Assembly (NCBI GenBank): GCA_005222975.1
Contig: NJBI01000020.1
Location: 1-51,335 of the forward strand
Origin: Promethearchaeota archaeon Loki_b31
GTDB taxonomy: Archaea > Asgardarchaeota > Lokiarchaeia > Sigyniarchaeales > SOKP01
DNA length: 51,335 bases
Direction of reading: 5' to 3'
The translations under genes were made by a program, and so were the position numbers. Of this stretch, positions 1,962 to 37,572 are shown one piece after another. The notes under the pieces were generated by a model that saw nothing but the letters and a program-made list of their open reading frames with translations, ran no database searches and was not told the DNA's origin. Every line of letters begins with the position of its first letter. Position 1 is the stretch's first letter.

Positions 1962-2627
1962 CTACCTCCATACTACTTCTCGTTGATGACCAGATTCGCT
2001 CCAATCTACTGGGTCTCTCAATTTAGAGAATTTGTCTAATTGTCCTAACTCTTTTAAACGGTTGTAAATTAATACCCAACCACAATCTTTCTCGTAATTG
2101 CCCACTTCACATTTACCATCAACCATTCCTCCACATGGACCGTTCATAAGCGCTTTTGCGCAAGTGGTTATAGGGCATATACCTCCAGTTTCGTTCAACA
2201 AACAATCACCGCATCCCCGACAGCGCATATAGAAACGGCCGATACGCTCCGTCATTCCCATGAACTCAGTATTATTAGAGATAAAAACAGGGATATGAGG
2301 GTACTTGTCGTGTAAGACTTTATTAATGCTTGCAACTCCTAAACCACAGCTTAATGTCAAGATCGCGTCGATCTCGCCTAATTCTGCGTCGATTTTTCTC
2401 AAATCTTTCTTCATTACTCTATTATCGCAGGTTTCTTCAGGAACTATTATTGTTTTGATTTCAAAACCTTCCTTTTCCAATTTTTCTGCCATTTCTTGGG
2501 CTCCTTCTTCACCACCGGTCTGACACATTGCGGCACATGAACCACAAGAAACGATCCCGATTTTCTTAACACCTTTTAAAGCGGTAAGAACTTCTTCAAA
2601 TGGTTTTTTAGTAGTAATTATTGTAAT
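1962..2627 (-). CDS. metV: MTHFR small Fe-S/Zn subunit MetV (copy 1), apparent non-AUG start
   Basis: CxxCxxC..GGICP..C.K.L.NGPCGG..G.CEV..C.W motif. The frame extends upstream of the listed ATG as ITIITTKKPFEEVLTALKGVKKIGIVSCGSCAA, matching the N-terminus of copy 2. Confidence 0.88.
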   Translation of the reverse strand: MTIITTKKPFEEVLTALKGVKKIGIVSCGSCAAMCQTGGEEGAQEMAEKLEKEGFEIKTIIVPEETCDNRVMKKDLRKIDAELGEIDAILTLSCGLGVASINKVLHDKYPHIPVFISNNTEFMGMTERIGRFYMRCRGCGDCLLNETGGICPITTCAKALMNGPCGGMVDGKCEVGNYEKDCGWVLIYNRLKELGQLDKFSKLRDPVDWSESGHQREVVWR

Positions 2628-2976
2628 TTGATATCCACCTTTTTTGCTTTTTATAAAAAATTATTTACTTACGATAAATAAATTAATGAAATTATTAAAA
2701 TTTAATTTTTTTAGATCAAAGGTAAACATTTTCTATGACTAAATTTATTGTCAAATTGATAATTATTATATTTTTAATGATGATTTTCTAAATAATCGTC
2801 AAAAAGATCAACATAATGATCAAATTTAAAAATTACTAATATTAAAATGGATGAATTTAAGAAGATAGACATTTTTAATGAAACAATGTAAAGTGTTATT
2901 AAAAAAATATTGAAAGATAAAATGTGTAAAAAAAATATTTTTCTATTGTTAAATTAAATCCAAATAAAAAAGCCCG

Positions 2977-3345
2977 TTAACCAATCATGGATGGAAGCAC
3001 TTTTGCTAAGGGAACCGCTAAACCACCGAGTAAAGAACCGATAGAGGTCAATTTTTTCAAATAGGTTTTCATATCTTTAGTAACTTTTATTGTCCTCGTT
3101 TTTCCTTCGATAATCGTACCATCAGAAGACATTAAGAATATTTGAATCGTTTGTTCTCCCGTTGCTCTTGGCTCTAAAGTTAACCAAGTCGAATCTCCGT
3201 TTTCTAACATGGATGATAACACTCCTACGATATCAGTACCTTCAGAAGAGATTAAAGGAATGGGTTTCTCTGGGATTAAAAAGCTACCTCTTCCTTCAAC
3301 CTTGATGGCTAAATTTAATTCTCTAGGTTCAAAACCTTCCCGGTA
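2977..3345 (-). pseudogene. C-terminal fragment of a hypothetical protein, 5'-truncated
   Basis: The frame stays open upstream of the listed start (EGFEPRELNLAIKVEGRGSFLIPEKPIPLISSEGTDIVG) until it collides with the opposite-strand gene near 3340. No proper start. Confidence 0.55.
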
Positions 3346-4172
3346 TATTTGAAAGATATTTCATTTATCGCAATGATACTGAAGAAAATTTGAAAAAAGT
3401 AGCAGAGCTTTATCGATGGTTTTTTAAAAGTTTTTTACCTCCATTTTTAGCAGAGAGTAAATTAAAACTTTTTCGACCACGATTACCTGTTGATGCTAAG
3501 GAAAAATTAATTGAAATTGATGAATCTCTTGATATTGAGTCTCAAATCCTTCCTTATGAATTAGTATCTCAATTAATCGATAATTATGATATGTTTACAT
3601 ATATTCCATGTCAATGTCGTTTAATAGCTGAATATACAGGAGAACCATGTGAGGTAGCTCCAGCAGAAATGGGGTGCTTTTTAGCGGGAGAAGGAGCGAG
3701 ATCTGCAATAGAAGGAGGATTTCCGAATCTTAATAAAGAAGAAGCTATAGAATACTTAAGAAAAACTGAAAAAGCGGGATTAATCCATAGTTGTGTAGCA
3801 GATAGCAGTATTGAATCTACTTTATTCATATGTAATTGTTGTAGTTGCCATTGTGGGGCGTTAGTAGCAGCAAAAGAACATAAATACTATGCGACCATAG
3901 CATCCAATTATGTGCCTAAAATAAACAATGAACTCTGTACTAAATGCGAAATTTGTCTAAATAAATGCCCAATGGGTGTTATTTATCATAAACTTCCTAA
4001 CGAACCAGATTCTTCTGATGAACACATGTTTATAAATGAAGAATATTGTTTAGGATGTGGAGTTTGTGCAAGTAATTGCCCAAATAATGCAATTAAACTA
4101 GTAAAAGTCAGAGATAATATTCCTACAGAAAAATATAAAATTGGTACAAAAACATTTTCAGAACTAGTGTAA
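3339..4172 (+). CDS. 4Fe-4S dicluster ferredoxin-domain protein, probably 5'-truncated
   Basis: CQC, CNCCSCHC and two CxxCxxCxxxCP motifs. The frame extends upstream to PGIFERYF at 3339 and closes at TAG 3324-3326 without an ATG. Confidence 0.8.
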   Translation, partial: PGIFERYFIYRNDTEENLKKVAELYRWFFKSFLPPFLAESKLKLFRPRLPVDAKEKLIEIDESLDIESQILPYELVSQLIDNYDMFTYIPCQCRLIAEYTGEPCEVAPAEMGCFLAGEGARSAIEGGFPNLNKEEAIEYLRKTEKAGLIHSCVADSSIESTLFICNCCSCHCGALVAAKEHKYYATIASNYVPKINNELCTKCEICLNKCPMGVIYHKLPNEPDSSDEHMFINEEYCLGCGVCASNCPNNAIKLVKVRDNIPTEKYKIGTKTFSELV

Positions 4173-4734
4173 GTTAAAATACTGCATTTTTACTTTTTAT
4201 ATTTTTAATTCTTAAAAATTGAAACTTCTTAATTAATTAAAAAGAATTTAAGAGATTTAATAATAAATTTAAAAGAATTAAAGGATTAAATCACTTTCTT
4301 TGATATAAACTAATCTTATAAGTTAATTTGATCAAAAAAGAAAAATTAAAAACAAGAATTAAGGAAATAAGGGATAAAAAACTTTTAAGTTGTGAGTTTT
4401 TGATCATTTTTTACCAACATTTTTTGGTATTTTTATAACTTTTTCCTTACAATTATTTAACAATAGTGCGGAAAAAATCGGAAAAAATCTCGAAAATGTC
4501 AATTTTCAATCGTTTTTAAATCCTCAAAGTTAATAAAAGGGATTTTTTTCCCCCAAAAAATAAGGATTCCTTTTTCAATCGTTATATGTTCAGAAAAAGT
4601 CAAATTTTCAAAGATTCGCCCGATCTCGTATAATGGGCTAAGGAAAATTTCCCATTATATTTATATACTAATTTGTTCTTAAAGTAATTAATAATAAAAA
4701 AATAAATATAAAACAAACTCGGAGTGAAAAAAAT

Positions 4735-5073
4735 ATGGAAATAATAAACCTTCAAGAAAAAGTTTTAGACCTTTCTGACGAACAGCTAAAAAGTATTTAT
4801 TTAGCAGCTAGTAGAATAAGTCAAGATAGTATTGAGGAATTAACTCCTATCCTGTTAAGAGTATGCTTAAACTGCGAAACAGGAGTTTTAAAGGATGAGC
4901 TCGGGCGAGTTATCTTTCATTTACAGAAGACAGAGAGGTTAGATACTCGAATTGGTCTTGAAAAGCTTTTACATGGAGCTTTAAAAGTGAACGCTAAAGA
5001 AGTATTTAAGCTTCTTGAATCTAGTGCGCCAGATGCTAAAGATTTATTAGAAAGAATAAAATCAATTTTATAA
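4735..5073 (+). CDS. Hypothetical alpha-helical protein
   Basis: 112-aa ORF with GGAGTGA SD-like sequence and a TTTATATA box upstream. Confidence 0.7.
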   Translation: MEIINLQEKVLDLSDEQLKSIYLAASRISQDSIEELTPILLRVCLNCETGVLKDELGRVIFHLQKTERLDTRIGLEKLLHGALKVNAKEVFKLLESSAPDAKDLLERIKSIL

Positions 5074-5112
5074 GAAAAAACTTTTTTTTACTAATCTTAT
5101 TTTATTTTAATA

Positions 5113-5391
5113 ATGTCAAATAATAATCAATCTGATTTAGATAAAGCTTGGGAGCATTACGTGAAAATACGAGACGCTCTTATGGGTTTATACGAAATCT
5201 TGGATTTGAATTTGGAAAAGGACAATATTTTTTACCAATGTGCGATCGACAACTTAGAAAATTTAAAAGACACAATTATCGACTTATTAAAAAAGGATTA
5301 TAATCCCTCCGAAATCACGCTAAAATTGAGAGATCTAGAATTTTCTATGAAAAAAGAGCTTTTTTTTGAAAAAAAAGAAAAACAAAAATAA
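5113..5391 (+). CDS. Hypothetical helical protein
   Basis: 92-aa ORF co-oriented with the previous gene; typical composition. Confidence 0.65.
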   Translation: MSNNNQSDLDKAWEHYVKIRDALMGLYEILDLNLEKDNIFYQCAIDNLENLKDTIIDLLKKDYNPSEITLKLRDLEFSMKKELFFEKKEKQK

Positions 5392-5583
5392 ATCGTTATA
5401 GAGAAAGAGTATTTAGATTAATCTCAAGTTTATTTTTGACAATTTTGTATTATGTTTTAATAGTGCAATATATCACATTCAATTTTATTTATAAAGGTGG
5501 TTGAGCTAGTTTATATTATTATTTTTAAAATTTATCTAAAATTAAAATTTAAAAAAATTAAATATTAATAAAGTGAATGTGAA

Positions 5584-6288
5584 ATGCTTATTTTAGAAGG
5601 ATGGATCGATGGTATAACTGCGTCCGGAGTCGTTATTTTTGGCATTATTTTTGGCATATTCTTCTTATATAAATCGCGAAAATCTGGTGCTAGGATTTTA
5701 ACAATTTTAGGGATAGTAAATATTTTAGCGGGACTTATGTATTTAGGGGTTTTTACGGATTTTTTGGTGGTTCTTATGACGGAAACCAATTTGGATAACA
5801 CCTACGGTTTGGTGGGAATATTGAGTTACATCTGGTTCGCCCCCATAATCATACTCGCGATTTATATCGGTGCTGAACTCTTAGTACCTAAGAAAAAGTG
5901 GTACTTTATGATATTAATTATTATTTTAAGCGCTATATTTGAAGTTTTTTTCATCTTAGATCCACTGGGCACTTTTAATTTCGTTGATCCAGTAAATCCA
6001 GGAGAGACATTAATTGATTATAATGTTAACATGTTTACCCCAGCAGGTATTATTATGGCTGTTTTATTATTAACCGTTTTAATAATTCTTGGCTTTGGGT
6101 TCTTAATAAAAAGCATTAAGTCTAGTGGTGTATTAAGGAAAAGGTTTTTTCTCTTATCTATGGGGTCTATATGCTTCTGTATATTCGGATTATTGGAAGG
6201 GTTAACTGCTCCAGGCTTGATGGTAATTTTTGTTAGAATCGGATATTTAACTAGTTTTTGGCTAATGTATTTCGGGCTAAAAACTTAA
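5584..6288 (+). CDS. Hypothetical 7-TM membrane protein
   Basis: Seven hydrophobic segments in 234 aa; no soluble output domain. Confidence 0.75.
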   Translation: MLILEGWIDGITASGVVIFGIIFGIFFLYKSRKSGARILTILGIVNILAGLMYLGVFTDFLVVLMTETNLDNTYGLVGILSYIWFAPIIILAIYIGAELLVPKKKWYFMILIIILSAIFEVFFILDPLGTFNFVDPVNPGETLIDYNVNMFTPAGIIMAVLLLTVLIILGFGFLIKSIKSSGVLRKRFFLLSMGSICFCIFGLLEGLTAPGLMVIFVRIGYLTSFWLMYFGLKT

Positions 6289-6429
6289 TTTTCTTTTTTT
6301 TTCATTTTTTCTATTAAATTATAAAAATTGGTCTATAATTATTTTTTATTAAAAGAAAGCATTATTTTTCTTAGAACTTACGGTCTAAAATATATTTAAT
6401 CAAATTCAATTTTAATTATTTTTTGAATT

Positions 6430-7427
6430 ATGAGCAAAACAAGTATAAAAAAAGAATTTCAAATAAATAATGATTCTACCATTATTGATATTCAAAATAT
6501 CAAGAAAAATTCAAAGATGTTAAAGCCGTAGATGGAGTCTCTTTAAAAGTAAAGAAAGGAGAATTATTTAGTATTCTGGGTCCTAATGGTGCTGGAAAAA
6601 CAACCTTAGTTCGTATGTTAACAACTATCTTAACCCCTACCTCAGGGAATGCTTACATAAAAGGGCACAACATAAAATCAGAAAAAAGTGAAATTGTTAG
6701 GCTTATTGGTGTTTGCCCTCAAGAAATTGTAATATATGAAATTTTAAGAGCTGAAGAAAACGTAGAGTTTGTTGCTAATATGCATGGAATATCAAATAAG
6801 GAGGCTAAAGAGAAAGCAAAAATCTTATTAGAAAAATTTGGTATTGCTGGTCGTAAGACTTGGTCAAAAAGTTTCTCAGGTGGAATGAAGCGCCGATTGA
6901 ATCTTGTTATGGCTTTGGTATTCGATCCTGAAATTCTTTTTCTTGATGAGCCTACTGCTGGTCTTGATCCTCAAGCAAGGCGATTAGTTTGGGATTATAT
7001 TCGTGAATTAAAGAATAAAGATATTACAATTATTCTTATGACACATGATATGGTGGAAGCAGATTCTCTTAGTGATCGTGTGGCAATAATCGATCGTGGT
7101 AAAATCATTGCTCAAGGAACACCTACCGAGTTGAAAGAAAAATACGGAAGCAACAATGTGTTAGAGATATCATTTATTGAGCAAATAGATTTGAATATTG
7201 TAAAAAATAGTTTAGGAAAAATCCCATTTGTAACTAATACGAAAGAAATTATGAAAAAAGAAAAAAAAACACTTCTAATATCTTTCAAAGGTGGTTTGAA
7301 AGAATTTATTCACATTCTCCAATCGGGAATTATTAATAATATTGATGAGGTTGAAAATATGAAATATCGCCAGAATTCTCTTGAAGATGTATTTTTAAAC
7401 TTAACAGGAAAGAGGTTAAGAGATTAA
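6430..7427 (+). pseudogene. ABC-2 type transporter ATP-binding subunit with a 1-nt frameshift near the 5' end
   Basis: ATG at 6430 (MSKTSIKKEF) goes out of frame at A5 6505-6509. The other frame gives FKDVKAVDGVS..GPNGAGKTT (Walker A) upstream of the listed ORF, then FSGGMKRR and LFLDEP. Confidence 0.8.
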
Positions 7428-8228
7428 ATGAAATTACGGGATAATAAAGCAATTCAAATTGCTATTAAAAATTTCAAGGATAAAATTCGTCATTGGCAAT
7501 ATGTATTTTTTTCTCTCGGACTTCCAATCATGTTTACTATTATGTTTTACTTCATACTTGGAACAGAAGAGCTCCCCTCAGGTAAAACGGCTTTCGATTA
7601 TGGTTTTCCTGGCATGATAATATATGCAACTGCCATTGGAACTATGAACGCCGCAATTATGTTTTCAGGAGAGAGAAGTTCAGGTATGCTTAGTCGATTA
7701 GATACAATGCCAACTGGTAGAAAAAATATGTTCTTAGGAGCTCTAATTTCTGAATCTATCTTTTTATCACTTCAAATCATCATTATGTTCGTTATTGGAT
7801 ACGCAATTCTTGGTTTATATTTTGAAAGTCCCCTAGCTTTACTTTTTGGTTTCTTAATTGCAGTCCTTTTTGGTATTTCCTCTGTAGGTTTAGGTATAAT
7901 AATTGCTAGTATGTCAAAAACAGTTGATATAGCAAATGCAGTTTCATTAATGTTGTTTATGATACTTATTTTCCTTTCAGGAAGTTTGATGCCGTTCGAT
8001 AGTCCAATCGTCTATTTCACTCCTCCATTCTGGGCAAAGCAAGTATTTTTGCAAATTGTTGTAATGGGACACGGATTAGGTGAGAATTTATACAGCAGCT
8101 CATTAATAGGCTATTCTGCTGAGGTCATCCCAATTTCTTTATTAGGTGGATTATTGATTGTCATAGCTTATACAATCGTATTTATAATAGTAGGTATTAT
8201 CATATTCCAGAAAAAAACCAAATTTTAG
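7428..8228 (+). CDS. ABC-2 type transporter permease
   Basis: Six TM segments and ERxxGxLxRL motif; abuts the ATPase stop. Confidence 0.9.
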   Translation: MKLRDNKAIQIAIKNFKDKIRHWQYVFFSLGLPIMFTIMFYFILGTEELPSGKTAFDYGFPGMIIYATAIGTMNAAIMFSGERSSGMLSRLDTMPTGRKNMFLGALISESIFLSLQIIIMFVIGYAILGLYFESPLALLFGFLIAVLFGISSVGLGIIIASMSKTVDIANAVSLMLFMILIFLSGSLMPFDSPIVYFTPPFWAKQVFLQIVVMGHGLGENLYSSSLIGYSAEVIPISLLGGLLIVIAYTIVFIIVGIIIFQKKTKF

Positions 8229-8332
8229 TATGTATAAAAAAAATTTCCTCTTTTTCTTTTAGAATAGAAAATTACTAATTTTCTCATTATTTTACTTAAT
8301 AAAAAATATAAACTTATTATTTGGCTTGAATT

Positions 8333-9355
8333 TTGTATAAATTTAAATCTGAAGTCATTAAAATAGATGATGTCTATCGAATTAAAATTGATGTTCCATT
8401 TGCCGTAAAGTTCGTTTGTCTTTACCTTTTTAAATCAAATGATCAACACATTCTAATAGATGCTGGTTTAAATATGGGAAATTGGAGTAAACTTCTTTTT
8501 TCAGCGCTCAACGATTTAAATATAACAATTGGAGATATTGATTATTGTTTTATAACACATATTCATTTGGATCACATCGGATTAGTAAAAACTCTTAAAC
8601 GCAAAAACCCAAATCTGAAAGTAGTGATGAACGATATAACCCATAAAATTCTGCGATGGGAAACAAACGATTCAACTATGGAAGAGTTAAAATCCGAAGC
8701 TAAAAAAGTTGCAAATCTAATGATAAAATGTGGAATTAACGAAGAACAAGGGAAAAGAGTGGTTCAATTTTTCACTTTTTGGCCGAGACTTCTGCGCTAC
8801 CAAAAACCAGATGTAATTGTGCGCGATAACGATAGATTTTTGGATGATTTAGAAATAATTTGGACTCCAGGTCACAGTTTTGGTCACACTTGTATCTTCA
8901 ATGCTGAAAAGAAATATCTTTTTTCTGGAGATCACATCCTTTCGAGAATTACTCCGCATATCGGGAATTTCTTGATTCCTAATACTCTAAAGGATGAATA
9001 TGAGAAGTACGATTTTGATAACATTTTAGAACATTATCTAAACTCGCTGGATCGAATTGAGAAATTAAATTCAAAGATAATTTTCCCTGCTCATCAAGAT
9101 ATTATATATAATTCACACGAGCGTATTTTAGAGATAAAGAAACATCACGAGGCAAGGTTATCTGAAATTTCGATTTTAATTAAAGACAAGCCTATGACGC
9201 CATTCAAGATTTCTCAGATTCATTTTGGAACTGATTTAGACGAAATTAATTCATTTATGGCTTTAAGTGAAGTATTAGGGCATCTCCTTTACCTTGAAAA
9301 TCAAGGAACTGTGCAAAGATTTGAGAAAAGTGGAAAAATTTATTACAAAAGTTAA
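8333..9355 (+). CDS. MBL-fold metallo-hydrolase with C-terminal wHTH
   Basis: LIDAG, THIHLDHIG, TPGHSFGH, SGDH, PAH motifs. Confidence 0.9.
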   Translation: MYKFKSEVIKIDDVYRIKIDVPFAVKFVCLYLFKSNDQHILIDAGLNMGNWSKLLFSALNDLNITIGDIDYCFITHIHLDHIGLVKTLKRKNPNLKVVMNDITHKILRWETNDSTMEELKSEAKKVANLMIKCGINEEQGKRVVQFFTFWPRLLRYQKPDVIVRDNDRFLDDLEIIWTPGHSFGHTCIFNAEKKYLFSGDHILSRITPHIGNFLIPNTLKDEYEKYDFDNILEHYLNSLDRIEKLNSKIIFPAHQDIIYNSHERILEIKKHHEARLSEISILIKDKPMTPFKISQIHFGTDLDEINSFMALSEVLGHLLYLENQGTVQRFEKSGKIYYKS

Positions 9356-22455: not shown

Positions 22456-22926
22456 ATGGAAGTTTTTATTGAAGAAGTAGAACCTGCGACTTATGATCCC
22501 GATGATCCATATGATATACCATATGACTATTGGATTGTAGCTAAACTAAATAATGGTCAAAGAATAAATATATTAGTTGATGCATACGACTTAACAGAAC
22601 TTAAAGGTAAAAAAGCAAAATTTTACATATATGCAAAAGAAGCTCTTGAATATCCTGAAAAAAAAGTTTTTACTACATCAGGTAATTATCATAGTAAATA
22701 TAAAATATCAATTGATGAAATAGAAAAATTTTTTATGTATGACTTAATACCCGAAAAAACAACTAAAGAAGAATATTTTAAGGACTTTTTAGAGGGAAGA
22801 CCAGCACTTACTACTGAAAATGGTACTTATTTTGCTTCAGAAAATCCCTCATATAATGATGGCGATTTAATTGATTATAATGTCTTACAATTTTATCCTA
22901 GTTTTTGGTATCCTATTGATGATTAG
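22456..22926 (+). CDS. Hypothetical acidic protein
   Basis: 156-aa ORF with no recognised motif. Confidence 0.6.
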   Translation: MEVFIEEVEPATYDPDDPYDIPYDYWIVAKLNNGQRINILVDAYDLTELKGKKAKFYIYAKEALEYPEKKVFTTSGNYHSKYKISIDEIEKFFMYDLIPEKTTKEEYFKDFLEGRPALTTENGTYFASENPSYNDGDLIDYNVLQFYPSFWYPIDD

Positions 22927-23002: not shown

Positions 23003-23353
23003 TTATTCTTTAAATAAACCTGCCATTAGAGTTGGTAATTTTAGATATATGACATCACCTTTATCATTAATTCCATTTATTTGATAAGGAAAACGCACTG
23101 GTTTCAATTTATTTACTTTGATACAAACTGGAAGAGTAGCTTTATATGCACTAAGTTCATTCTTTAATTTCCTTACTGTTATCCCTTTATCACTTATATC
23201 CATTACAATTATATTTACTGATTCTTCTTCTAATTCAGTTCTTATAACTACTGTATGATATAATGAAGCATCTTTTTCCGACTGCATAACGCAAGAAACT
23301 GTAGCGTCCTCATTACATTCTTCTAAATCATCAATCAATTCTCTTACATTCAT
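23003..23353 (-). CDS. Hypothetical protein with internal duplication
   Basis: MNVRELIDDL and ITVRKLKNEL begin two similar halves; strong GGGAGG SD. Confidence 0.65.
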   Translation of the reverse strand: MNVRELIDDLEECNEDATVSCVMQSEKDASLYHTVVIRTELEEESVNIIVMDISDKGITVRKLKNELSAYKATLPVCIKVNKLKPVRFPYQINGINDKGDVIYLKLPTLMAGLFKE

Positions 23354-23594
23354 ATTTTATCCCTCCCTTTTTTTGACCTATTATAATAATATAATTTTTT
23401 ATTTTTCTAATTAGTTTTTGTCTTAACCTATAATAAATGCAATAGATATATATCCTTTTCCTCATTCACTTTAAGTTACTTCATTGTCTCTTCTAAAATT
23501 TAAATCTAAAGGGAAAATTAAAAAATGATGATTTAAAGAAGAATTAATAAATCTAAAACACAAGTGGAGTAACCTTGATATTACTAGGAGGATA

Positions 23595-24362
23595 TTATCT
23601 AATCTTTTGAAATATTTGCCCCCAGTATTCACGATTTAAAGCTTTATAGGCTTTATCTCTTATCTCATATTTTTCACGACGAGTAAGATCTGCCGATATT
23701 ACATTGTCTCTATTAGCAGGATCAAAAAAATGTTTGTTAACTATATTATTAGCAATATATTCAAATACTGTCTCAAGTTGAATTGAGAGAGAATCTCTCG
23801 TAACATCATAGCATGCTAGATGAGTCATGATCTCTAATAAAAATGTTTTTATTGGTATTTCTCGACGAAATTTCCAGAGTTTTAACAATTTAATTACATC
23901 TCTACGATCATATTTTTCTATTTCTTCAATGTGTTTCTGCATGCTTGTTTTCAGTCTTTTCTTTTCATAGCAATTATATAGATAAGAATACTCAGATTCA
24001 TGAATGTCTTGGACAGTCGGAATGACATCCACATGAAATTCATTTTCATAGGGAATTCGCCATCCAACTCTCTTTTTCTCAATTCTCTTCCATTTAGAAT
24101 TTAACGCATGTTCTACTTCATAGAATAAATCTTTTAATGGCATAAATTCAGGAGTCCAAATTATAAACATATCCAAATCATAGTGTTGTCTTATCATAGT
24201 ATCCTTTTTGAATGAACCCGCCATAAACATGCTTTTTTTACCCCCTATATGCTTAAAAATACAAGACCGAACATTATTTCTTAATCTTAATAAGCTATCT
24301 ACTTGAGATTGTGTTGGTTCTAAATCATTCAGGACTGTTCTTAAAAATTCTTCATTATCCAT
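23595..24362 (-). CDS. cGAS/DncV-like (SMODS/OAS-like) nucleotidyltransferase, copy 2
   Basis: Pol-beta motifs AGSFKKDTM..YDLD and FHVDVIP; C-terminal KLLKLWK, DPANRDN, YWGQIF. Confidence 0.85.
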   Translation of the reverse strand: MDNEEFLRTVLNDLEPTQSQVDSLLRLRNNVRSCIFKHIGGKKSMFMAGSFKKDTMIRQHYDLDMFIIWTPEFMPLKDLFYEVEHALNSKWKRIEKKRVGWRIPYENEFHVDVIPTVQDIHESEYSYLYNCYEKKRLKTSMQKHIEEIEKYDRRDVIKLLKLWKFRREIPIKTFLLEIMTHLACYDVTRDSLSIQLETVFEYIANNIVNKHFFDPANRDNVISADLTRREKYEIRDKAYKALNREYWGQIFQKIR

Positions 24363-24428
24363 TAGTTTACATATAAATTTATTAAATTTTTTTATAAAAA
24401 CTATTATTCTAATATAACTTATATCTCG

Positions 24429-25190
24429 TCAGAAGAACACCTGATTCCAGTACTGTACTTCAATAGCCTGACGGGCAAGATTACGAACTCGATTCTTTTG
24501 TTCTTTTGATAAATCATCTGAAATAATATTATTGGAATTGGAGGGATCTTCAATTCTAACATTTTGAATACTATCTCGTAGATAATTAAAAGCCGCTAGC
24601 AATTGAGATTCAAGTTTAGATCGATCAATACCCTTACATCCCTCGATGATGCAGCTCTCTAAAATAAAGGTTTTAATTGGTACATTTTTTCTTTTCTTCC
24701 ATAATTTCATTAGTCTAATTACATCTTGTCGACCACTTTTATTAACATAGTCAACTTGGATATAAATACTTGTTTGGAATCTTCCACCTGTTTTATTATT
24801 ATATAAATATGCATAGTTTTCATCTTTACTTGAGAATTTACCAGGTATAACATCAATATGAAAATCTCCTTCAAAGGGAAGTTCTAATCCCACTTTCTTT
24901 TTTCTCACGGTCCTCCAATTTCTATTAAGTACGCCTTCAGCAGCCCTATATAAGCTTTCTAGAGAATAAGGAGAATCCGAGGGCCAATATAAAACAAGAT
25001 CTAAGTCATAACTCGCCTTTATCATTGTATTTTTAGCATAGGAACCTCCATAATATGCTTTAGGAGTTCCTTTTATTCCATTTCTTAATTGCCCTTCGAT
25101 TTTATCTCGAAGTTCCCTTAAATTTCTTTTCTGATTCTCAGTTAAATCTTGTTCGTCTAAAATTTCTCTCAAATAGCTTTCATTAGTCAA
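24429..25190 (-). CDS. cGAS/DncV-like (SMODS/OAS-like) nucleotidyltransferase, copy 1
   Basis: GGSYAKNTM..YDLD, FHIDVIP, RLMKLWK, DPSNSNN, YWNQVF; TTG start after a GTGA SD-like motif. Confidence 0.87.
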   Translation of the reverse strand: MTNESYLREILDEQDLTENQKRNLRELRDKIEGQLRNGIKGTPKAYYGGSYAKNTMIKASYDLDLVLYWPSDSPYSLESLYRAAEGVLNRNWRTVRKKKVGLELPFEGDFHIDVIPGKFSSKDENYAYLYNNKTGGRFQTSIYIQVDYVNKSGRQDVIRLMKLWKKRKNVPIKTFILESCIIEGCKGIDRSKLESQLLAAFNYLRDSIQNVRIEDPSNSNNIISDDLSKEQKNRVRNLARQAIEVQYWNQVFF

Positions 25191-25320
25191 GAATAATCAC
25201 TTTTATCAATTTGACTTTATTGTAGTCTTTGGTTAATTTTTATAATGTAATTTGGATATATAAATTTATAGAGCTAAAATAATAGTAATTTAATATTAAA
25301 TACAGAAATTCTGGGTTTTT

Positions 25321-26430
25321 ATGAAAGAAAGAGATGTCCATAAATTAATAGTTGAAAGCGGAGGGATTTGTAACTTTCCTGAATGTAGAGAAAAATTTAT
25401 TTTCCAGTATGAAGATGGTACTTTTGTTAAATTATATGAATTTGCCCATATTATTGGAGAAAGTCCCGAAGGTCCAAGAGGGCATCAGACAAAGAGTAAA
25501 TTAATGGCACAAGATCCTGAAAATATTATATTATTATGTGTAAAACATCATAAAATTGTTGATAAGAATGAAAGAGAATATCCAGTTGAAAAACTAAAAA
25601 AAATGAAAGAAAATCATATACAATGGGTTAATGAAAGATTAGAAGGTCTAAAAGAAGCCACTTGGACATTGATAATCCATTCAGGGAATGTAACAGGAAC
25701 GGGTGTTCCAAATTTAGATAAAGAATTAATATATCGAGATTTTTATGGATCTCACATAATTGCAGAAACTGAAGAAATCATTATTGAAGAATTTCTAACC
25801 GAGACGCAAAATTGGCTTGAATATCAACAAAAACAAAAAGAATGGTGGCAAAATTTTAAAAATCGAGATGAGATTTCCAAGAAATTTCTTATTTGTTCAA
25901 TTAATTTTATTCCATTAGTAATTCAATTAGGCTATCTCATTCACGATACATTTACAGCAGATATTTATCAATATCACCGTGAAGAGGATACTTGGAAATG
26001 GGAATCTTTACACGGGATCAAAAAAGAACAAGACTTTTATTTAATTGAAAGATTTGATAATAATGATTTAAATATTCAAGAAATAGCCTTATCATTTTCA
26101 ATATCGGGTATTGTTAATGATGATGATATTTTCGAAGTTGTCGGGAATGCTATTAAAATAATTAAAATTAAAGTAAATGAACCTAATAGAACTTGGTTAA
26201 AATATAAAGAACAGATAATAAATTTTCAAAAAAAGTATATCCAATTGATAGATGCAATAGTTCAACAATATAAGAATTTAAAAAAAATTCATTTGTTTTA
26301 TGCAGGACCCACTCCAATTGCTTTTATTATTGGGAGTTCTATTAATCCAACTATACACCCTCCTTTTATACTCTATAATTATTATGCAAAAGATACTCCT
26401 AAATATACAAAAGCTTTTCATATAAACTGA
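25321..26430 (+). CDS. HNH endonuclease-SAVED effector (Cap5-like architecture)
   Basis: N-terminal GGICNFPEC..AHI..GPRG..NIILLCVKHHKIVD (HNH). C-terminal SAVED hallmarks IPLVIQLGY, YQYHR..WKW, ALSFSISG, IHLFYAGPTPIAFIIG, LYNY. Confidence 0.9.
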   Translation: MKERDVHKLIVESGGICNFPECREKFIFQYEDGTFVKLYEFAHIIGESPEGPRGHQTKSKLMAQDPENIILLCVKHHKIVDKNEREYPVEKLKKMKENHIQWVNERLEGLKEATWTLIIHSGNVTGTGVPNLDKELIYRDFYGSHIIAETEEIIIEEFLTETQNWLEYQQKQKEWWQNFKNRDEISKKFLICSINFIPLVIQLGYLIHDTFTADIYQYHREEDTWKWESLHGIKKEQDFYLIERFDNNDLNIQEIALSFSISGIVNDDDIFEVVGNAIKIIKIKVNEPNRTWLKYKEQIINFQKKYIQLIDAIVQQYKNLKKIHLFYAGPTPIAFIIGSSINPTIHPPFILYNYYAKDTPKYTKAFHIN

Positions 26431-26551
26431 TAATTTACTAATTACATAGGGAAATGCGATACAATCCCCCTTATCGCCGAAGTGTGTCCTTATTCTCACT
26501 AATGTCCCGCTATATTTTCCTCGTTACTCAAGGGATTAAAAACGGATTTTG

Positions 26552-28783
26552 TTAGAAATTTGTGTTTATAAGAAAATGATAAAGATTCATTGGCTTTCCT
26601 TGTCTTATATGAATAGTTTTTCCCTGTCTTAATTCACTATTAATATTATATTGATCACTTTCATCATAGAATTGTTTTTCCTTAAGTTTATATTTGAAAG
26701 GAGTTTTTAGAACGGTTTCTTTATAGTTTGACCATAAATCCTCGAAATGAACAGCTTTTGAGTATATAATGATAAAATTAAATGGAAGACCGATTATATC
26801 GTATTTAAAAATTTTTAATAAATGTTCTTCAATTGTCTTTATAACATTGGATTTTAATACTAATGCTTCGCAGATTGCTAAGAGTAAGTTCTTTTCATTC
26901 ATTAATACAAAATCTAAATTCCCCAATCCACCTATATGATCAAATTTTCTTTTTTCAGCTGAAGCAGATATTCCCGAAGGAACCTGGTCCTCAGTATGCC
27001 AACCATATCTCTCAATCGAATTATTAATAAATTTACTTAGGATTACTGAATAATGATCCTCAGATTTTTGAATAGATTGGATTATTTGTTGGAATTGATA
27101 AATACATTTTATTAAAGTTTCAATGATTAACTCTCTATTGGTTTTTATATCAGGTTGTGGTAGTAATTCCAATTCTATGACTGGTAGCTTTAAATCAACA
27201 CCAACAGTGCATAAATCATTTTGCTTCAAGCAAAAATTAATTTCTCTTTCACCAATAAATCCATTACTCTTAATATCAATTTTGAAATGATTTCTTCCAG
27301 CTTCATAAACAGGTTCATACTTACTAATATCAAATAAATCAGTCTCCTCAAAATCTATAATATATGTATAGATTTTATCGTTTTCGGCAAATTTTTGTAT
27401 TATATCGAATTGTTGATAATTCTTAGATAAATTTAGATATTGAAAATTAGGATTATTCTCTTGATTACGATTCCATGGATGGATCTCCTTCATTGAATCT
27501 AAATTAATTATAAAAATAGATTCGATTGGAGGGGGTAGTGGACAGAAATTCGCAGGTAATTCGAATCTCAATTGTTTTAATTTTCCGTTATCGTTAAAAT
27601 AGAAGTTTTCAAGAGAAGATCTTATTCTTTCAGTCTTTATATCTTCGGAACTAGGACTAAATTCTATACTCTCTATATGATCAGAGAATTCTTGTTTTAA
27701 CTGGGATATCATAAGTTTATTTTTGAGATTCTCTATTCTTTTAATAAAAGTTGATAATATTGAAGAAAGCTCCAAATAAAACATAATTATTTCTTTATTA
27801 TATAAGGGAATGGTCTTGGAGTTCAATAAATTTTTAAAACTCGTTTCTGATTTATGTAATTTTTGGTTTGAAAGGTCATAATCATCTATATTCATGTAAT
27901 ATATCCCCATAAATAGCATGAATCGAGCTTTTAAAAAATTAAATTTAAAAGGAAATTTTCTACTCGATTCTTTAATTATATTAAAAGACTCAAAATCGTT
28001 CTTTAAATGTTCTATATCCGCCTCAAGTTTTTTCAGAATAACAACAGGTATATCTTCATTGTATATATCAAGGTACTCCAAAATATAATCAGTTAAAATG
28101 AAGATTTTCTGTGAAAGAGATATTTCTTTATTAATAGATTCTTTAAAACATTCTAGAGCTTTCACCTTCTCCCCTAAAAATGAAAGAAAAAGACCTTTAT
28201 CATATGTATTTGGCATAAGAAGTAGTCTGTCTTTAAGTTTTTCGAAGATTGGTTTATGGTCAATATGACCTCGGAGAATAAGTTTAAAGATTCCTATAAT
28301 TGATCTAATCTCACTTTCATTATCAGATGTCATTTCTAAAAATTGATCTATAAAATTTGAGAATGTCTCAGGTTTTCTCGCCAATGAAAAAGATATGCTA
28401 TTATAACGCTTCCTTTCAATTAAAAGGTTAATTATATCTTGTTGCAGATCATTATCCATTTTATCAAAGTTTTTCAAAAGGTTCATTGACCAAGGATTAA
28501 ACCATTCTCGATTGCGAGTATTTGATAAATATTCTTTTACTTTATTTATGAAGAATTGTGGAGATAAATGTGAAGTATAATCCCCAAAAGATCCAAAAAG
28601 GACATTTGAATATTCAGAAATATGACTATCAGAGGGAGGCTCTCCAAAATTAATATTTTCGTAATATTCCTCTAAGATTTTTGTAAATTCTTCACCTAAC
28701 TCTGGTTTTGCCTTAAAAAATACTGAAAAGATCTGTGATTTATTAATATAATTCTCAAGATGATATTTAAAAGCTTCAACCAC
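26552..28783 (-). CDS. Large helical-repeat protein with a putative C-terminal PD-(D/E)xK-like domain; in frame with the upstream ORF
   Basis: TPR-like helical region; C-terminal EDHYS..EDQ..G.G.LDF..ICEAL..EHL.K..YD..G pattern. Fold assignment is inference. Confidence 0.6.
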   Translation of the reverse strand: MVEAFKYHLENYINKSQIFSVFFKAKPELGEEFTKILEEYYENINFGEPPSDSHISEYSNVLFGSFGDYTSHLSPQFFINKVKEYLSNTRNREWFNPWSMNLLKNFDKMDNDLQQDIINLLIERKRYNSISFSLARKPETFSNFIDQFLEMTSDNESEIRSIIGIFKLILRGHIDHKPIFEKLKDRLLLMPNTYDKGLFLSFLGEKVKALECFKESINKEISLSQKIFILTDYILEYLDIYNEDIPVVILKKLEADIEHLKNDFESFNIIKESSRKFPFKFNFLKARFMLFMGIYYMNIDDYDLSNQKLHKSETSFKNLLNSKTIPLYNKEIIMFYLELSSILSTFIKRIENLKNKLMISQLKQEFSDHIESIEFSPSSEDIKTERIRSSLENFYFNDNGKLKQLRFELPANFCPLPPPIESIFIINLDSMKEIHPWNRNQENNPNFQYLNLSKNYQQFDIIQKFAENDKIYTYIIDFEETDLFDISKYEPVYEAGRNHFKIDIKSNGFIGEREINFCLKQNDLCTVGVDLKLPVIELELLPQPDIKTNRELIIETLIKCIYQFQQIIQSIQKSEDHYSVILSKFINNSIERYGWHTEDQVPSGISASAEKRKFDHIGGLGNLDFVLMNEKNLLLAICEALVLKSNVIKTIEEHLLKIFKYDIIGLPFNFIIIYSKAVHFEDLWSNYKETVLKTPFKYKLKEKQFYDESDQYNINSELRQGKTIHIRQGKPMNLYHFLINTNF

Positions 28784-28789
28784 TTTTTT

Positions 28790-29890
28790 TCAGTATAAAG
28801 TATCAATATATTTGGCATTTATCTTTGGATCTTGGTCTACAATATCAAATATTGAGATTTCTAATTTTTGAATAAGGTCTTTATCTGTTTGTTCATATTT
28901 AATATAGTCTCTAATGAGATTATAGCCTAAATCCTTAAATTTTTTTAAATAATTCTTCAAAAGGTGATTTTTTTGATTAATTTGGATAAAGTATAGGAAT
29001 TGGTTTATTTCAGATGAAATTGGGTCCATATGATTCCATTCAATATTGAATTCCAAAATTTTTTCTAATATTTCTATTAACTCATTATCTGAATTGAATA
29101 ATATCGCCGTTGAAAGAAGGAGCTTTTTCTTTTTCACCCACTCAATTGTAAATTCTTCTGTCAATAAGGATTTGAATTCTTTAAAATATTCTTGAAATCT
29201 TATTTTTAAATCATTTTCAATTGTCTTGTATAAACTGATATTAATCTTCTCTAAAATTATTTTAAAATTCCTAAATTGGTATATGTTTAAAAAAATATTT
29301 TCAATTGAAATTCTTACATATTCTGGATATTGATTAATTAATTCAGGAATTAAATTAAAAAGTCTAAAAGCTAAGTCCCACCATTTTAACTCAAATATTT
29401 TCGGAAGAAAATTTGAAATTTCTCTTGGATATTTAGAAACAAGATTTTCAAATAATCTTGGATAATCTGTTAAACTTTCACCTCTAGTTTCTATTAAATA
29501 ATCACCTAATGCATTATTAATCTTTTCCTGAGCATTTCCAAATAAGGTTTCAGAAGTAGGAAGTATTTTTTCTAATAAATATTCTCTAAGTTTATTACTA
29601 AAAATTTTCGGATTTTCAGTCATTAAATTTAATATGAGCTCTATTGGATCGGAAAGAAATTTCCTTTCATTTCTCTCAAAAAAAAGAGAGGGAATGAAAT
29701 CCTCTTCAGATATGATTTTCTTCTCGAAAAGAGTGATTTTTGCTAGTTGGGTTATCTGTTTCGGAGAGGATTTTAAAATCAATCTTAATGCTAACCAATT
29801 ACCATTTAATAAAAAATCCTCTGTTTGTTTAATTAAATCTTCTTTTATTTGTTCATATTCGAGTTTAAACGGATTGGCTGTCATAAACAA
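28790..29890 (-). CDS. Helical-repeat hypothetical protein; probable N-terminal part of the 26552-29890 frame
   Basis: 366-aa Leu/Ile/Glu/Lys-rich ORF ending TGA-AAA-AAA-GTG, in frame with the next ORF. Confidence 0.6.
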   Translation of the reverse strand: MFMTANPFKLEYEQIKEDLIKQTEDFLLNGNWLALRLILKSSPKQITQLAKITLFEKKIISEEDFIPSLFFERNERKFLSDPIELILNLMTENPKIFSNKLREYLLEKILPTSETLFGNAQEKINNALGDYLIETRGESLTDYPRLFENLVSKYPREISNFLPKIFELKWWDLAFRLFNLIPELINQYPEYVRISIENIFLNIYQFRNFKIILEKINISLYKTIENDLKIRFQEYFKEFKSLLTEEFTIEWVKKKKLLLSTAILFNSDNELIEILEKILEFNIEWNHMDPISSEINQFLYFIQINQKNHLLKNYLKKFKDLGYNLIRDYIKYEQTDKDLIQKLEISIFDIVDQDPKINAKYIDTLY

Positions 29891-30859: not shown

Positions 30860-30990
30860 AGCGGTTAGGTTATCAATTTTGTTAAAAATGTTAAGTAGTA
30901 GTATAACATTTTAATAAAAATTGTTCATGCGAAGTTTGGAACACATCCCTTATTCGCACAGGCTGAAACCAGCAACCTCTATCGGATAGA
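30860..30990 (-). ncRNA. Putative omegaRNA / right-end structure of tnpB-1 (boundaries approximate)
   Basis: Hairpin AGGUUG..CAGCCU (30960-30978) and an ~20-bp imperfect inverted repeat 30874-30893 / 30904-30923 overlapping the tnpB 3' end. Confidence 0.5.
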
Positions 30991-32167
30991 TTTTGAATAA
31001 AACCATCTCCGACTACTTTTCTGAGGATATTTAACGCTCCATTTACATCTGCATTGAGAAGATAATTCGAACCTCTAAATAATCCTCGTTTTGTCCGTTT
31101 ACCAACGTAATTTTTACGTTTTTGAATCGGTTCTAAATCCAACGAGCTACATTTTGAAGTATAGGACTCATTGACTTCGTGAATTTGAATTCCTACAAGT
31201 TGAGCTTTATAAGTTATCATTTGTTTAAGCTTTTGAATGGGGATATTCACGAAATTTTGGTTATTTCGTTTGCCCATTCTGATATTCTGTTTTATATTTT
31301 TCAAATTACCTAAACAAATATGTCCTATTTGGTTTTCTAAGCAATAACCTATGAGAAATTGAGCTGTTTTATGTAAATAATCGGTAATAACTGAATTTCG
31401 ATTAATAGTAATACTTTCGAGCCTATTTGTCCGCTTTAGGTTCTGTTTGTCTTTAATAGAATTAAGCCTTGCTTTCTGTTTGTTCCATTGTCGGTTAATA
31501 GACTTTAAAACTCTTCCTGAAACGATAATCGGTTTTTCGTTTCTATTTTCTACCGTTGTTATTAAATTATTTAATCCAAAATCAATAGATAAGTACGAGC
31601 TATAGTTTAATTCTGCTTTCTCTACCTTTCTTTTATATACTCTTCGATTTCGTAGAATTTTTTTCTCGGTAAGATCCTTATTTGCTGATAACATTCAAAA
31701 TTCTTGTTTCTATAGTGAGGTATTGTAATTTCTATTGGATGTTCAAATTCAGGAAATGCTTTCTTAAAAAACTTAGACATCGTAAGAATGATTTTATTGT
31801 TCGTAATTTTACTATTCTGATTCGTAAAGATCAAGAGATTATAACCGTCTTTCTTATATTTAGGTGGTCTCGGTCTTCCATTGAATTTTTCTTGACCCTT
31901 TTTCCATTCTTTTATTGCATTGAAGAAACTTTTCCAATTCCTATCGATGATTTTAAGAATCTGTTGCGAAGTTTGAGCTTTTAATAATTTGTAGTTATTA
32001 GAGTGTTGCAAAATAAAATTTAAATCTTGATAGCGAAGCAAATTTTCCAAATGAAAAAAATCTTGTCGTACGTACCAATTTGCCTGATTATAGAGCTTTT
32101 TAGAAATAATACAAAGCAAATCTAACTGAGCACTTTTAGGATGTCTAAACCTATAAGTTAATTTCAC
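30891..32167 (-). pseudogene. tnpB: TnpB RNA-guided endonuclease (solo, IS200/IS605/IS607-type) with a 1-nt frameshift at about 31641
   Basis: N-half SKKLYNQA..AQTSQQ..WKSFF..PRPPKYK..QIRILP; C-half SIDFGLNNL, DYLHK, NESYTSKCS, NADVNGALNI. Junction reads GAA-GA-GTA-TAT. Confidence 0.9.
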
Positions 32168-36490: not shown

Positions 36491-37357
36491 TCAACCTCGT
36501 AAGGGCATTCCATTCAATTCGACAAACTCGTCTTGTTTTGGTTTCTTTTCTCGATATGGATTTCTCACATCATTGATTTTTCTTGCAAATGTCATGTAGC
36601 CCGTATGCCCAATCATTCGAACTTCGGGATGGGTTGCATTTTTTTTCACTTGAAATTTTCTTTTAATTAATTCGTATGTATTTATTTCATAAAATCCGTT
36701 TTCTTGCAGAGCAAAAGTTGTTTTTTTAACTTGTTCTATAGCAGGTGAAAATGACACAAAGGTTCCACTAAGTTTAAGATAACTCCTAATTTTTTCAACA
36801 GCCTTCCAAGGTTGTGGCATATCTAAAACAACTGAGTCGACATTTTTGTGTTTAAGATCGTCATTTAAAATATCTCCGAATTGAATTGAGACAAAATCTT
36901 GTAAATTTGCCTTAATAACATTCCTTTGAGCTCGTTTTAGGCTTTTTTCTCTGATATCGTACGAAAATATATGCCCCTCGGGTCTTACATAATTTCCTAA
37001 AATACATGTTAATGCTCCTGAACCACACCCTGCTTCAACAACCATACTGCCAGGGCCAATCCCAGAATACATTAAAATTAATCCTGCGTCTTCCGGATAA
37101 ATTATTTGAGTTTTGCGGCTCATGTAAGTTACATAATCAGAAGGTAAAGGTTTAAAAACATAGAATTTATATCCTTGAGTTTCATAAGGTCGAGAAAATA
37201 TTACAGAACCAAATGGTTTTCCTATTAGATCATCATACTTTATAATCCCTTTATGTGTATGAAATTCACTCCCAGATTCTACACTAACCAACCACTTTCT
37301 TCGTTCATCAAGAATTAGGTAAATTAAATCATTTTCTTTTATTATCTCTTCGGCCAT
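36491..37357 (-). CDS. trmI: tRNA (adenine-N1)-methyltransferase TrmI/Trm61
   Basis: TQIIYPED, VEAGCGSGALT, LDMPQPW, GHTGY. Likely start is ATG 37357. Confidence 0.93.
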   Translation of the reverse strand: MAEEIIKENDLIYLILDERRKWLVSVESGSEFHTHKGIIKYDDLIGKPFGSVIFSRPYETQGYKFYVFKPLPSDYVTYMSRKTQIIYPEDAGLILMYSGIGPGSMVVEAGCGSGALTCILGNYVRPEGHIFSYDIREKSLKRAQRNVIKANLQDFVSIQFGDILNDDLKHKNVDSVVLDMPQPWKAVEKIRSYLKLSGTFVSFSPAIEQVKKTTFALQENGFYEINTYELIKRKFQVKKNATHPEVRMIGHTGYMTFARKINDVRNPYREKKPKQDEFVELNGMPLRG

Positions 37358-37572
37358 AATTAATCTCTTTTCCAAAACCCGAATTTTTTCAATAATATCT
37401 AAAGTGTTCTAATAATTTCGCTGTCATAAATTTTACAAAATTGTAACTTTTTTATAACGTTTTAAATAATTTAAACGAGTTTTTACAAAAAATATAAAAT
37501 ATATGTAAAATTGAAATAATCAATCATTGTTTATGCAACCTTTTTTATAAATACTCGTTAATGATTTAATCT

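Follow-up and report, generated by a model that had tools for sequence, protein, structure and literature searches.

A predicted type I CBASS locus with two tandem cyclases and one Cap5-type effector in an Asgard archaeon

We analyzed a 51,335-nt stretch of DNA (hereafter, the window), which comprises positions 1 to 51,335 of contig NJBI01000020.1 from the genome assembly GCA_005222975.1 of Promethearchaeota archaeon Loki_b31. It contains a predicted antiphage signaling system that is based on cyclic oligonucleotides (CBASS), with two tandem paralogous cyclases of the cGAS/DncV-like nucleotidyltransferase family (CD-NTases), P0001 and P0002, and a divergently transcribed gene for a single Cap5-type effector, P0003. 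The pairing of the cyclases is conserved in archaeal relatives, and the three genes form a mobile cassette. The reading that we favor, and to which we give an even chance at best, is that the two cyclases would serve as independent infection sensors feeding one Cap5 (an OR gate). The features of the locus are as follows.

23595-24362, minus strand: P0001, 255 aa, distal CD-NTase, the "P1-like" accessory cyclase of an archaeal clade
24363-24428, minus strand: spacer of 66 bp between P0002 and P0001, with a TATA-like AT-rich stretch about 28 nt before the ATG of P0001 (sequence inspection)
24429-25190, minus strand: P0002, 253 aa, TTG start, proximal CD-NTase, the "P2-like" primary cyclase
25191-25320, no strand: divergent intergenic region of 130 bp, AT-rich, presumed site of both promoters (sequence inspection)
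25321-26430, plus strand: P0003, 369 aa, Cap5-type effector with an N-terminal HNH nuclease and a C-terminal SAVED sensor
23592-26500, no strand: extent of the mobile three-gene cassette, where blastn homology to relatives ends

The original prediction, made from the letters of the window and their translations, described two tandem nucleotidyltransferases collinear over their full length and facing an HNH-SAVED gene head-to-head across 130 bp. The coordinates proved exact, the gap at 25191-25320 included, and the end-to-end alignment of P0001 with P0002 (37% identity, 59% positives, 3 gaps, E-value 2e-65) is far beyond chance. The motifs listed for the pair are all present in this alignment (GSxxKxTMI..YDLD, FHxDVIP, YxYLYN, KLWK..PIKTF.LE, DPxNxxN, W.Q.F), and the GS and the three catalytic aspartates are kept in P0001 (G49-S50, D62/D64, D112) as well as in P0002 (G49-S50, D62/D64, D113). 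The TTG start of P0002 is supported by its homologues, which start with MTNESY at the same position.

The same residues are preserved in relatives. G49, S50, D62, D64, and D112 do not vary among 24 homologues of the P1-like type, nor do GS, D62xD64, and D113 among 42 homologues of the P2-like type. A total of 45 positions, including K53, T55, KLWK, E177, and DPxNxxN, are both invariant and identical across the two clades. Hence, the active sites seem to resemble each other; an identical or similar product would be compatible with this. Judging from the sequences, both cyclases are apparently catalytically competent.

Assignment of the two proteins to the CD-NTases, and not to the CCA-adding or MNT enzymes, was borne out by profile and fold comparisons. 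The PADLOC cyclase model PDLC00803 (253 positions) matches both end to end, with E-values of 3.6e-60 for P0001 and 1.5e-71 for P0002, the latter match spanning positions 2-252 of 253. With the Pfam SMODS model, P0001 scores 31.7 bits, above the cut-off of 26.5, and P0002 scores 25.0 bits, just below it; the NCBIfam models of CBASS cyclases match both proteins at 1e-15 to 1e-19, below their equivalog cut-offs. When the family profile was compared with the Protein Data Bank (PDB), the best match was CdnC (3.8e-15), and a cGAMP synthase, CdnD, and CdnG were also found. Confident AlphaFold2 models were obtained, with a predicted local distance difference test score (pLDDT) of 83.8 for P0001 and 95.9 for P0002. 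In a Foldseek search, the P0001 model matches CdnD (6p82) with a TMq of 0.80, and VIA-align superposes the P0002 model on its best fold matches, CdnB (7ljo) and CdnD (6p82), with a Z-score of 24.4 and a root-mean-square deviation of 2.5-2.6 A over 248-251 residues. The models have the two-lobe fold and superpose over their full length on CdnD, CdnB, DncV, CdnG, and CdnC.

By sequence and predicted structure, P0001 and P0002 are thus assigned as compact but complete CD-NTases. They share the catalytic triad and the two-lobe fold with CdnC of E. coli MS115-1 (6p80), CdnD of P. aeruginosa (6p82), and CdnB of B. fragilis (7ljo), but are only 15–22% identical to these enzymes, shorter, and devoid of their insertions; moreover, the CdnC and CdnD represented by these structures function together with HORMA/TRIP13, whose genes are absent from the locus. 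The compactness itself, which the original prediction treated as a special trait by calling the enzymes minimal, turned out to be ordinary, since about 253 aa is the usual length of the subfamily, bacterial members included. Net charge and isoelectric point fail to separate the classes of cyclases, nearly all of which are basic.

The two proteins might instead be housekeeping nucleotidyltransferases of the CCA-adding, MNT, or poly(A) type that happen to lie beside an unrelated SAVED gene. Weak matches in this direction do exist: the model of the archaeal CCA-adding enzyme, TIGR03671, aligns with the N-terminal part only of both proteins, at 2.9e-7 and 1.3e-5 (29.7 and 24.2 bits, the cut-off being 281), and a CCA-adding enzyme appears in the PDB profile search at 2e-3. 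The CBASS cyclase models, however, align from end to end, with values better by 40–60 orders of magnitude; an HNH-SAVED gene is linked in about 50 loci of bacteria and in at least 15 of archaea; and the distribution of the genes is patchy and cassette-like. We regard the housekeeping explanation as hardly credible.

The short, OAS-like form of the cyclases in a lineage related to eukaryotes had been taken to bear on the origin of immunity of the oligoadenylate synthase (OAS) type. This link is not supported by the sequence comparisons. The profile match to OAS2 (6.6e-7, versus 3.8e-15 for CdnC) is restricted to approximately 100 N-terminal residues, the Pfam domain OAS1_C (PF10421) has no match in P0001 or P0002, and no OAS occurs among the 50 best fold matches listed by Foldseek. 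The archaeal pair is sister to bacterial Cap5-linked cyclases, and the cyclase tree, in which OAS sequences are not included, shows no special tie to eukaryotes. OAS has been placed inside the bacterial clade C (PMC10732462).

P0003 was correctly recognized as an HNH-SAVED effector and can be specified as Cap5-type. In Pfam it matches SAVED (1.5e-38) and, weakly, HNH_2 (0.0036), whereas two PADLOC models, the CBASS endonuclease effector (1.4e-65) and SAVED_HNH (4.3e-63), cover it end to end. Its alignment with Cap5-type proteins of solved structure (8ysq at 1.8e-27; 7rwm, 7rwk, 8fm1) runs end to end over 360 residues, and the HNH signature is kept in the alignment to 8ysq and 7rwm (AHI..SPxGPR and N..LLC..HH..D). 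The end-to-end alignment with 8ysq makes it similar to a SAVED protein of Deinococcus wulumuqiensis, the structure of which was released together with those of DwCdnB.

As the original prediction had it, neither Cap2/Cap3 nor HORMA/TRIP13 genes are recognizable nearby: Pfam and PADLOC scans of the neighbors at 17.2-33.5 kb gave no match to ThiF/E2, JAB, HORMA, or AAA/TRIP13, and the same scans detected genes of the ThiF/JAB type in two archaeal relatives of the locus (L083 and L022, see below). Hence, by its gene content the locus classifies as type I CBASS with a Cap5 effector, the features of types II and III being absent. In having cyclase and HNH-SAVED genes and lacking Cap2/Cap3 and HORMA/TRIP13, it resembles the CdnG-Cap5 systems of Asticcacaulis sp. 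and Lactococcus lactis (PMC8568899; 7rwk, 7rwm), where the cyclase is both the sensor and the signal generator, and its product, bound by SAVED, activates the Cap5 nuclease. The window differs from CdnG-Cap5 in having two cyclases, a divergent effector gene, and an archaeal host; in addition, its cyclases represent the compact 253-aa subfamily of PDLC00803.

The assignment of the host to the Asgard archaea is supported. The same window also codes for a thermosome and a Ras/Arf-like GTPase, and the nearest named homologues are from Hodarchaeales, Promethearchaeota, Lokiarchaeum ossiferum, and Candidatus Harpocratesius. One genome listed in the same order as that of the window has its match at coordinates identical to those of the Candidatus Harpocratesius repetitus locus (L024).

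We compared 80 species-representative loci of the cyclase family, of which roughly 60 are bacterial. About 50 of these bacterial loci contain exactly one cyclase gene and a co-oriented HNH-SAVED gene, the latter directly upstream of the former in all but a few cases. Thus, the norm on which the original prediction relied, a single cyclase co-oriented with its effector, holds for the bacterial relatives; those of P0002 share the exact two-gene layout of type I Cap5 CBASS, indicating that a P2-type cyclase suffices with Cap5. All loci with a second cyclase are archaeal.

Contigs of genomes and metagenomes, together with exact-protein look-ups, supplied these loci, and we counted distinct ones in which the P1-like gene is intact and has an upstream flank of at least 500 bp. 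A second cyclase is present in 17 out of 17 such archaeal loci, whose P1-like proteins are 44–91% identical to P0001, and the HNH-SAVED gene is visible in 15, the contigs of the remaining two being too short. A search for conserved neighborhoods of two nucleotidyltransferases and SAVED, which had been proposed as a check, thus found the pair to recur. Three more contigs contain only truncated P1-like fragments without a partner, which we read as remnants.

The partners of the P1-like cyclases are of three kinds, all retaining the catalytic residues. The first consists of P0002-like proteins, 70–98% identical to one another. The second is a 268-aa type, denoted X, 32–34% identical to P0002 (L018, L098, L100-L102). 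The third is a 292-aa type found in Lokiarchaeum ossiferum (L083), where it is followed by genes of Cap2 (ThiF) and Cap3 (JAB); cyclases related to it are carried by Candidatus Harpocratesius repetitus (L024) and by L099. As in the window, L083 and L024 combine a P1-like protein (58–59% identical to P0001), one HNH-SAVED gene, and a second cyclase, but there the second cyclase is the 292-aa type, whereas the partner in the window is a tandem sister paralogue without Cap2/Cap3. L083 and L024 are classed as two-cyclase CBASS of type II.

The commonest layout is that of the window, with the cyclase pair divergent from the effector gene and, in relatives, cyclase–cyclase spacers of 24–69 bp. In L083, L024, and L099 the two cyclase genes flank the effector gene, so that in L083 the P1-like gene is on its far side. 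In L091 (2297-5166), the SAVED, P2-like, and P1-like genes are all co-oriented, with the effector upstream as in bacteria; the HNH-SAVED protein is 27% identical to P0003, the P2-like protein 79% to P0002, and the P1-like protein 87% to P0001; apparently, the effector was exchanged here next to cyclases that otherwise form a similar pair. Another locus, L084 (2355-12780), contains the cassette in diverged form (SAVED 50% and P1-like 44% identical) and is situated in a defence island that also holds a HEPN_Swt1-like gene, a CAP12/PCTIR TIR fragment, and Cas6 genes.

In a tree of 60 sequences (IQ-TREE, LG+C20), the archaeal clade (support 100/99) splits into the P2-like proteins (94/87) and a branch uniting L022 with the P1-like proteins (99/93), the P1-like clade itself being supported at 99/95. 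The sister group of the archaeal clade is formed by bacterial 253-aa Cap5-linked cyclases (98/98), and the X and 292-aa partners are located in the other half of the tree. This topology points to the origin of the tandem pair by an old duplication within archaea, after which the P1-like protein became an obligate companion with an exchangeable partner. The basal relative of the P1-like proteins, L022, is a single cyclase next to convergent Cap2-like (ThiF) and Cap3-like (JAB) genes (2480-8944), and no SAVED gene was found in this locus. Upstream there are genes for a protein with PD-(D/E)XK and helix-hairpin-helix domains, a candidate effector, and for a Schlafen/AlbA_2 protein.

All three genes of the cassette are under purifying selection. 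Pairwise ratios of nonsynonymous to synonymous substitution rates (dN/dS) between orthologous cassettes are 0.09-0.15 for the P2-like cyclase, 0.17-0.29 for the SAVED effector, and 0.20-0.43 for the P1-like cyclase, which evolves two to three times faster than its partner. The extra variability of the P1-like proteins falls mainly on residues 30-49, 70-86, and 116-145, outside the catalytic motifs. The synonymous divergence dS between the window and L092, its closest relative, is 0.01 for SAVED, 0.06 for P2-like, and 0.19 for P1-like, and the identity matrices across loci are mosaic. Such unequal dS within one pair of loci, together with the mosaic identities, indicates that parts or alleles of the cassette have been shuffled.

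When L092, L086, L096, and L088 were compared with the window by blastn, only the interval from approximately 23592 to 26430 or 26500 matched, at 82–96% identity, and the flanks differed. In L092, msrB adjoins the end of the effector gene; in the window it is located another 4 kb away. As DNA homology stops at the borders of the cassette, the cassette is a mobile unit. Of 400 species genomes of the phylum scanned for the cyclase family at E-value of at most 1e-20, 10 contain it, that of the window included, and three of these 10 have a true P1-like protein. The cassette was found in none of 40 other genomes of the genus of the window, and a scan of viral contigs revealed no relative. This is a rare, patchy, and mobile accessory cassette, as expected of a defence system.

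These observations bear on the possibility that the second cyclase is a redundant duplicate kept by chance or dosage, with no division of labor. The two proteins do agree in length, fold, and motifs and belong as paralogues to a single archaeal clade. However, the duplication is old, as the copies are 37% identical and many lineages are represented in each clade; purifying selection acts on both copies; and the P1-like protein is retained where distant cyclases have taken the place of its partner. Neutral duplicates should decay, whereas the only decayed copies are fragments without the whole module. This makes mere redundancy highly improbable.

The OR gate would work as follows. P0002 is the primary cyclase, the Asgard counterpart of those cyclases that in bacteria occur alone with a co-oriented Cap5, and P0001 belongs to an older archaeal duplicate lineage whose members behave as add-on cyclases. 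Each would independently sense a different cue of viral infection, and either one, when triggered, would make a nucleotide second messenger for the SAVED domain of the shared Cap5. With the messenger bound, Cap5 would oligomerize and its HNH DNase would be switched on, resulting in DNA degradation and abortive infection; the second sensor would widen the range of what can be detected. We favor this reading for three reasons. Firstly, the P2-type cyclase suffices alone in bacteria. Secondly, the active-site residues of the two cyclases are alike. Thirdly, the P1-like protein is portable across distant primary cyclases. The layout of the locus, the families of its proteins, the conserved pairing, the purifying selection, and the mobility of the cassette are shown by the data, whereas signal synthesis, activation of this Cap5 by both products, and independence of the two sensors are inferred.

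Several observations weigh against this reading. P1-like proteins 58–87% identical to P0001 occur with SAVED proteins only 25–31% identical to P0003 (L091, L083, L024), so that one P1-like product would have to fit quite different sensors, or else the P1-like cyclase may make no ligand of the effector at all. The higher dN/dS of the P1-like genes could reflect relaxed constraint instead of an arms race. Mantel correlations of distance matrices (r = 0.41 for SAVED and the partner versus 0.52 for SAVED and P1-like) show no clear signal of co-evolution. Finally, the tight tandem spacing suits a two-subunit enzyme equally well.

Such an enzyme, heteromeric or sequential, would constitute an AND gate: the cyclases would form a heterodimer with a composite site, or one of them would extend or cyclize a linear intermediate made by the other, so that only the pair produces the ligand of Cap5. 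The constant adjacency or proximity of the two genes, with their short spacers, agrees with this, as do the fact that an intact P1-like gene was never found alone and the conservation of catalytic residues in both proteins. At the same time, the P2-type cyclase works singly with Cap5 in the bacterial loci, and a specific interface is hard to reconcile with three types of partners of the P1-like protein that are only 32–34% identical to one another. In L083, L024, and L099, the cyclases are located on opposite sides of the effector. A search for P2-P1 fusions among proteins of 448-2000 aa yielded none, which is weak evidence. Structure prediction for a heterodimer of P0002 and P0001, each supplied with its alignment, gave no answer (score 0.00) and counts neither way. 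On balance, an obligate two-enzyme synthase seems quite unlikely to us.

In another scheme, the P1-like cyclase would act as a modulator or a second signal, making a different nucleotide that serves either as a backup messenger escaping viral sponges or nucleases or as a priming or restraining ligand of Cap5, so that the pathway would be tuned or protected instead of duplicated. Its status as the fastest evolving gene, with alleles shuffled between cassettes and variability concentrated outside the catalytic motifs, would fit such a role, and its presence beside very different primary cyclases and SAVED effectors 25–98% identical to P0003 is what one would expect of a generic accessory. This is countered by the sameness of the active-site residues in both clades and by the structure of SAVED domains, which, as is generally known for Cap4 and Cap5, usually have one ligand pocket; nor is there a consistently linked gene for a second sensor or effector, P0004 (see below) not being linked. 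We therefore consider a modulating role unlikely.

The OR gate might also be one instance of a broader arrangement. The P1-like cyclase may be a portable, fast-evolving second sensor module that Asgard archaea add to CBASS of different types that are complete in other respects, both type I (with P2-like or X partners) and type II (with Cap2/Cap3), so that one Cap5 would integrate two unrelated triggers or two different messengers. The locus would then exemplify a prokaryotic multi-receptor network of nucleotide signaling, in the manner of several cGAS-like receptors feeding one STING. We put this generalization forward as possible yet doubtful.

Two further candidates were considered and rejected. 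A read-through fusion of the two cyclases is not conserved: only in the window and its two closest relatives, L092 and L093, does the 66-nt spacer keep the frame without a stop, the stop codon upstream of it varies among TGA, TAA, and TAG, and 11 other loci have stops or a frame break. The second candidate is a possible fourth gene of the module:

23003-23353, minus strand: P0004, 116 aa, no family match, 241 bp downstream of P0001

It is linked to the cassette only in L088, where it stands behind the same cassette with 93% protein and 96% DNA identity, and its homologues occur in non-CBASS contexts, adjoining HNH_5/DDE transposase genes or unknown genes. P0004 is probably a hitch-hiker of the variable region.

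The region 26552-29890 (minus strand) codes for a 743-aa protein with a weak RPN7/PCI-like match and a 366-aa protein with no match, both of unknown function, and has a low GC content (0.26-0.27); these genes are not present in L092, the 743-aa protein has no other member in its 90% cluster, and the region seems to have been inserted separately next to the cassette. At 30891-32167 (minus strand), a 267-aa TnpB/Cas12f-like open reading frame (ORF; OrfB_IS605 and TNB domains) overlaps a 181-aa ORF; the whole is probably a broken IS605-family element. A 156-aa ORF at 22456-22926 (plus strand) weakly matches the archaeal phage integrase domain at 1.3e-4, below the cut-off; it may be what is left of an integrase and mark a hotspot of integration adjoining an Lrp/AsnC regulator gene. 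A 294-aa ORF at 36491-37375 (minus strand) matches the PADLOC mad2 model (mads_2) at 9.8e-22 and is perhaps part of another defence or methylation system.

CBASS is known in Asgard archaea and has been reported to be enriched there (PMC12988326; PMC11291487). We found no description of two-cyclase CBASS operons in the literature searched, which did not cover the main classification papers. What the analysis of the window adds is the mobility of the cassette, the sister relation of P0002 and its Asgard relatives to bacterial single cyclases, and a clade of fast-evolving P1-like paralogues, intact members of which came with a second cyclase in all 17 loci.

In the bacterial relatives examined, one sensor-cyclase is wired to one effector. 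If our reading is true, a conserved lineage of cyclases that exists only as the second cyclase and is swapped among CBASS types would mean that more than one input can be built into such systems. The compact pair of enzymes of about 250 residues also allows a side-by-side comparison of trigger and product specificity. In animals, several cGAS-like receptors (cGLRs) converge on one receptor, STING. The logic of the favored model is similar, with several sensor-synthases of the same family and one nucleotide receptor, the convergence here being a prediction; unlike the animal case, the effector is a nuclease, and no evolutionary link connects the two systems.

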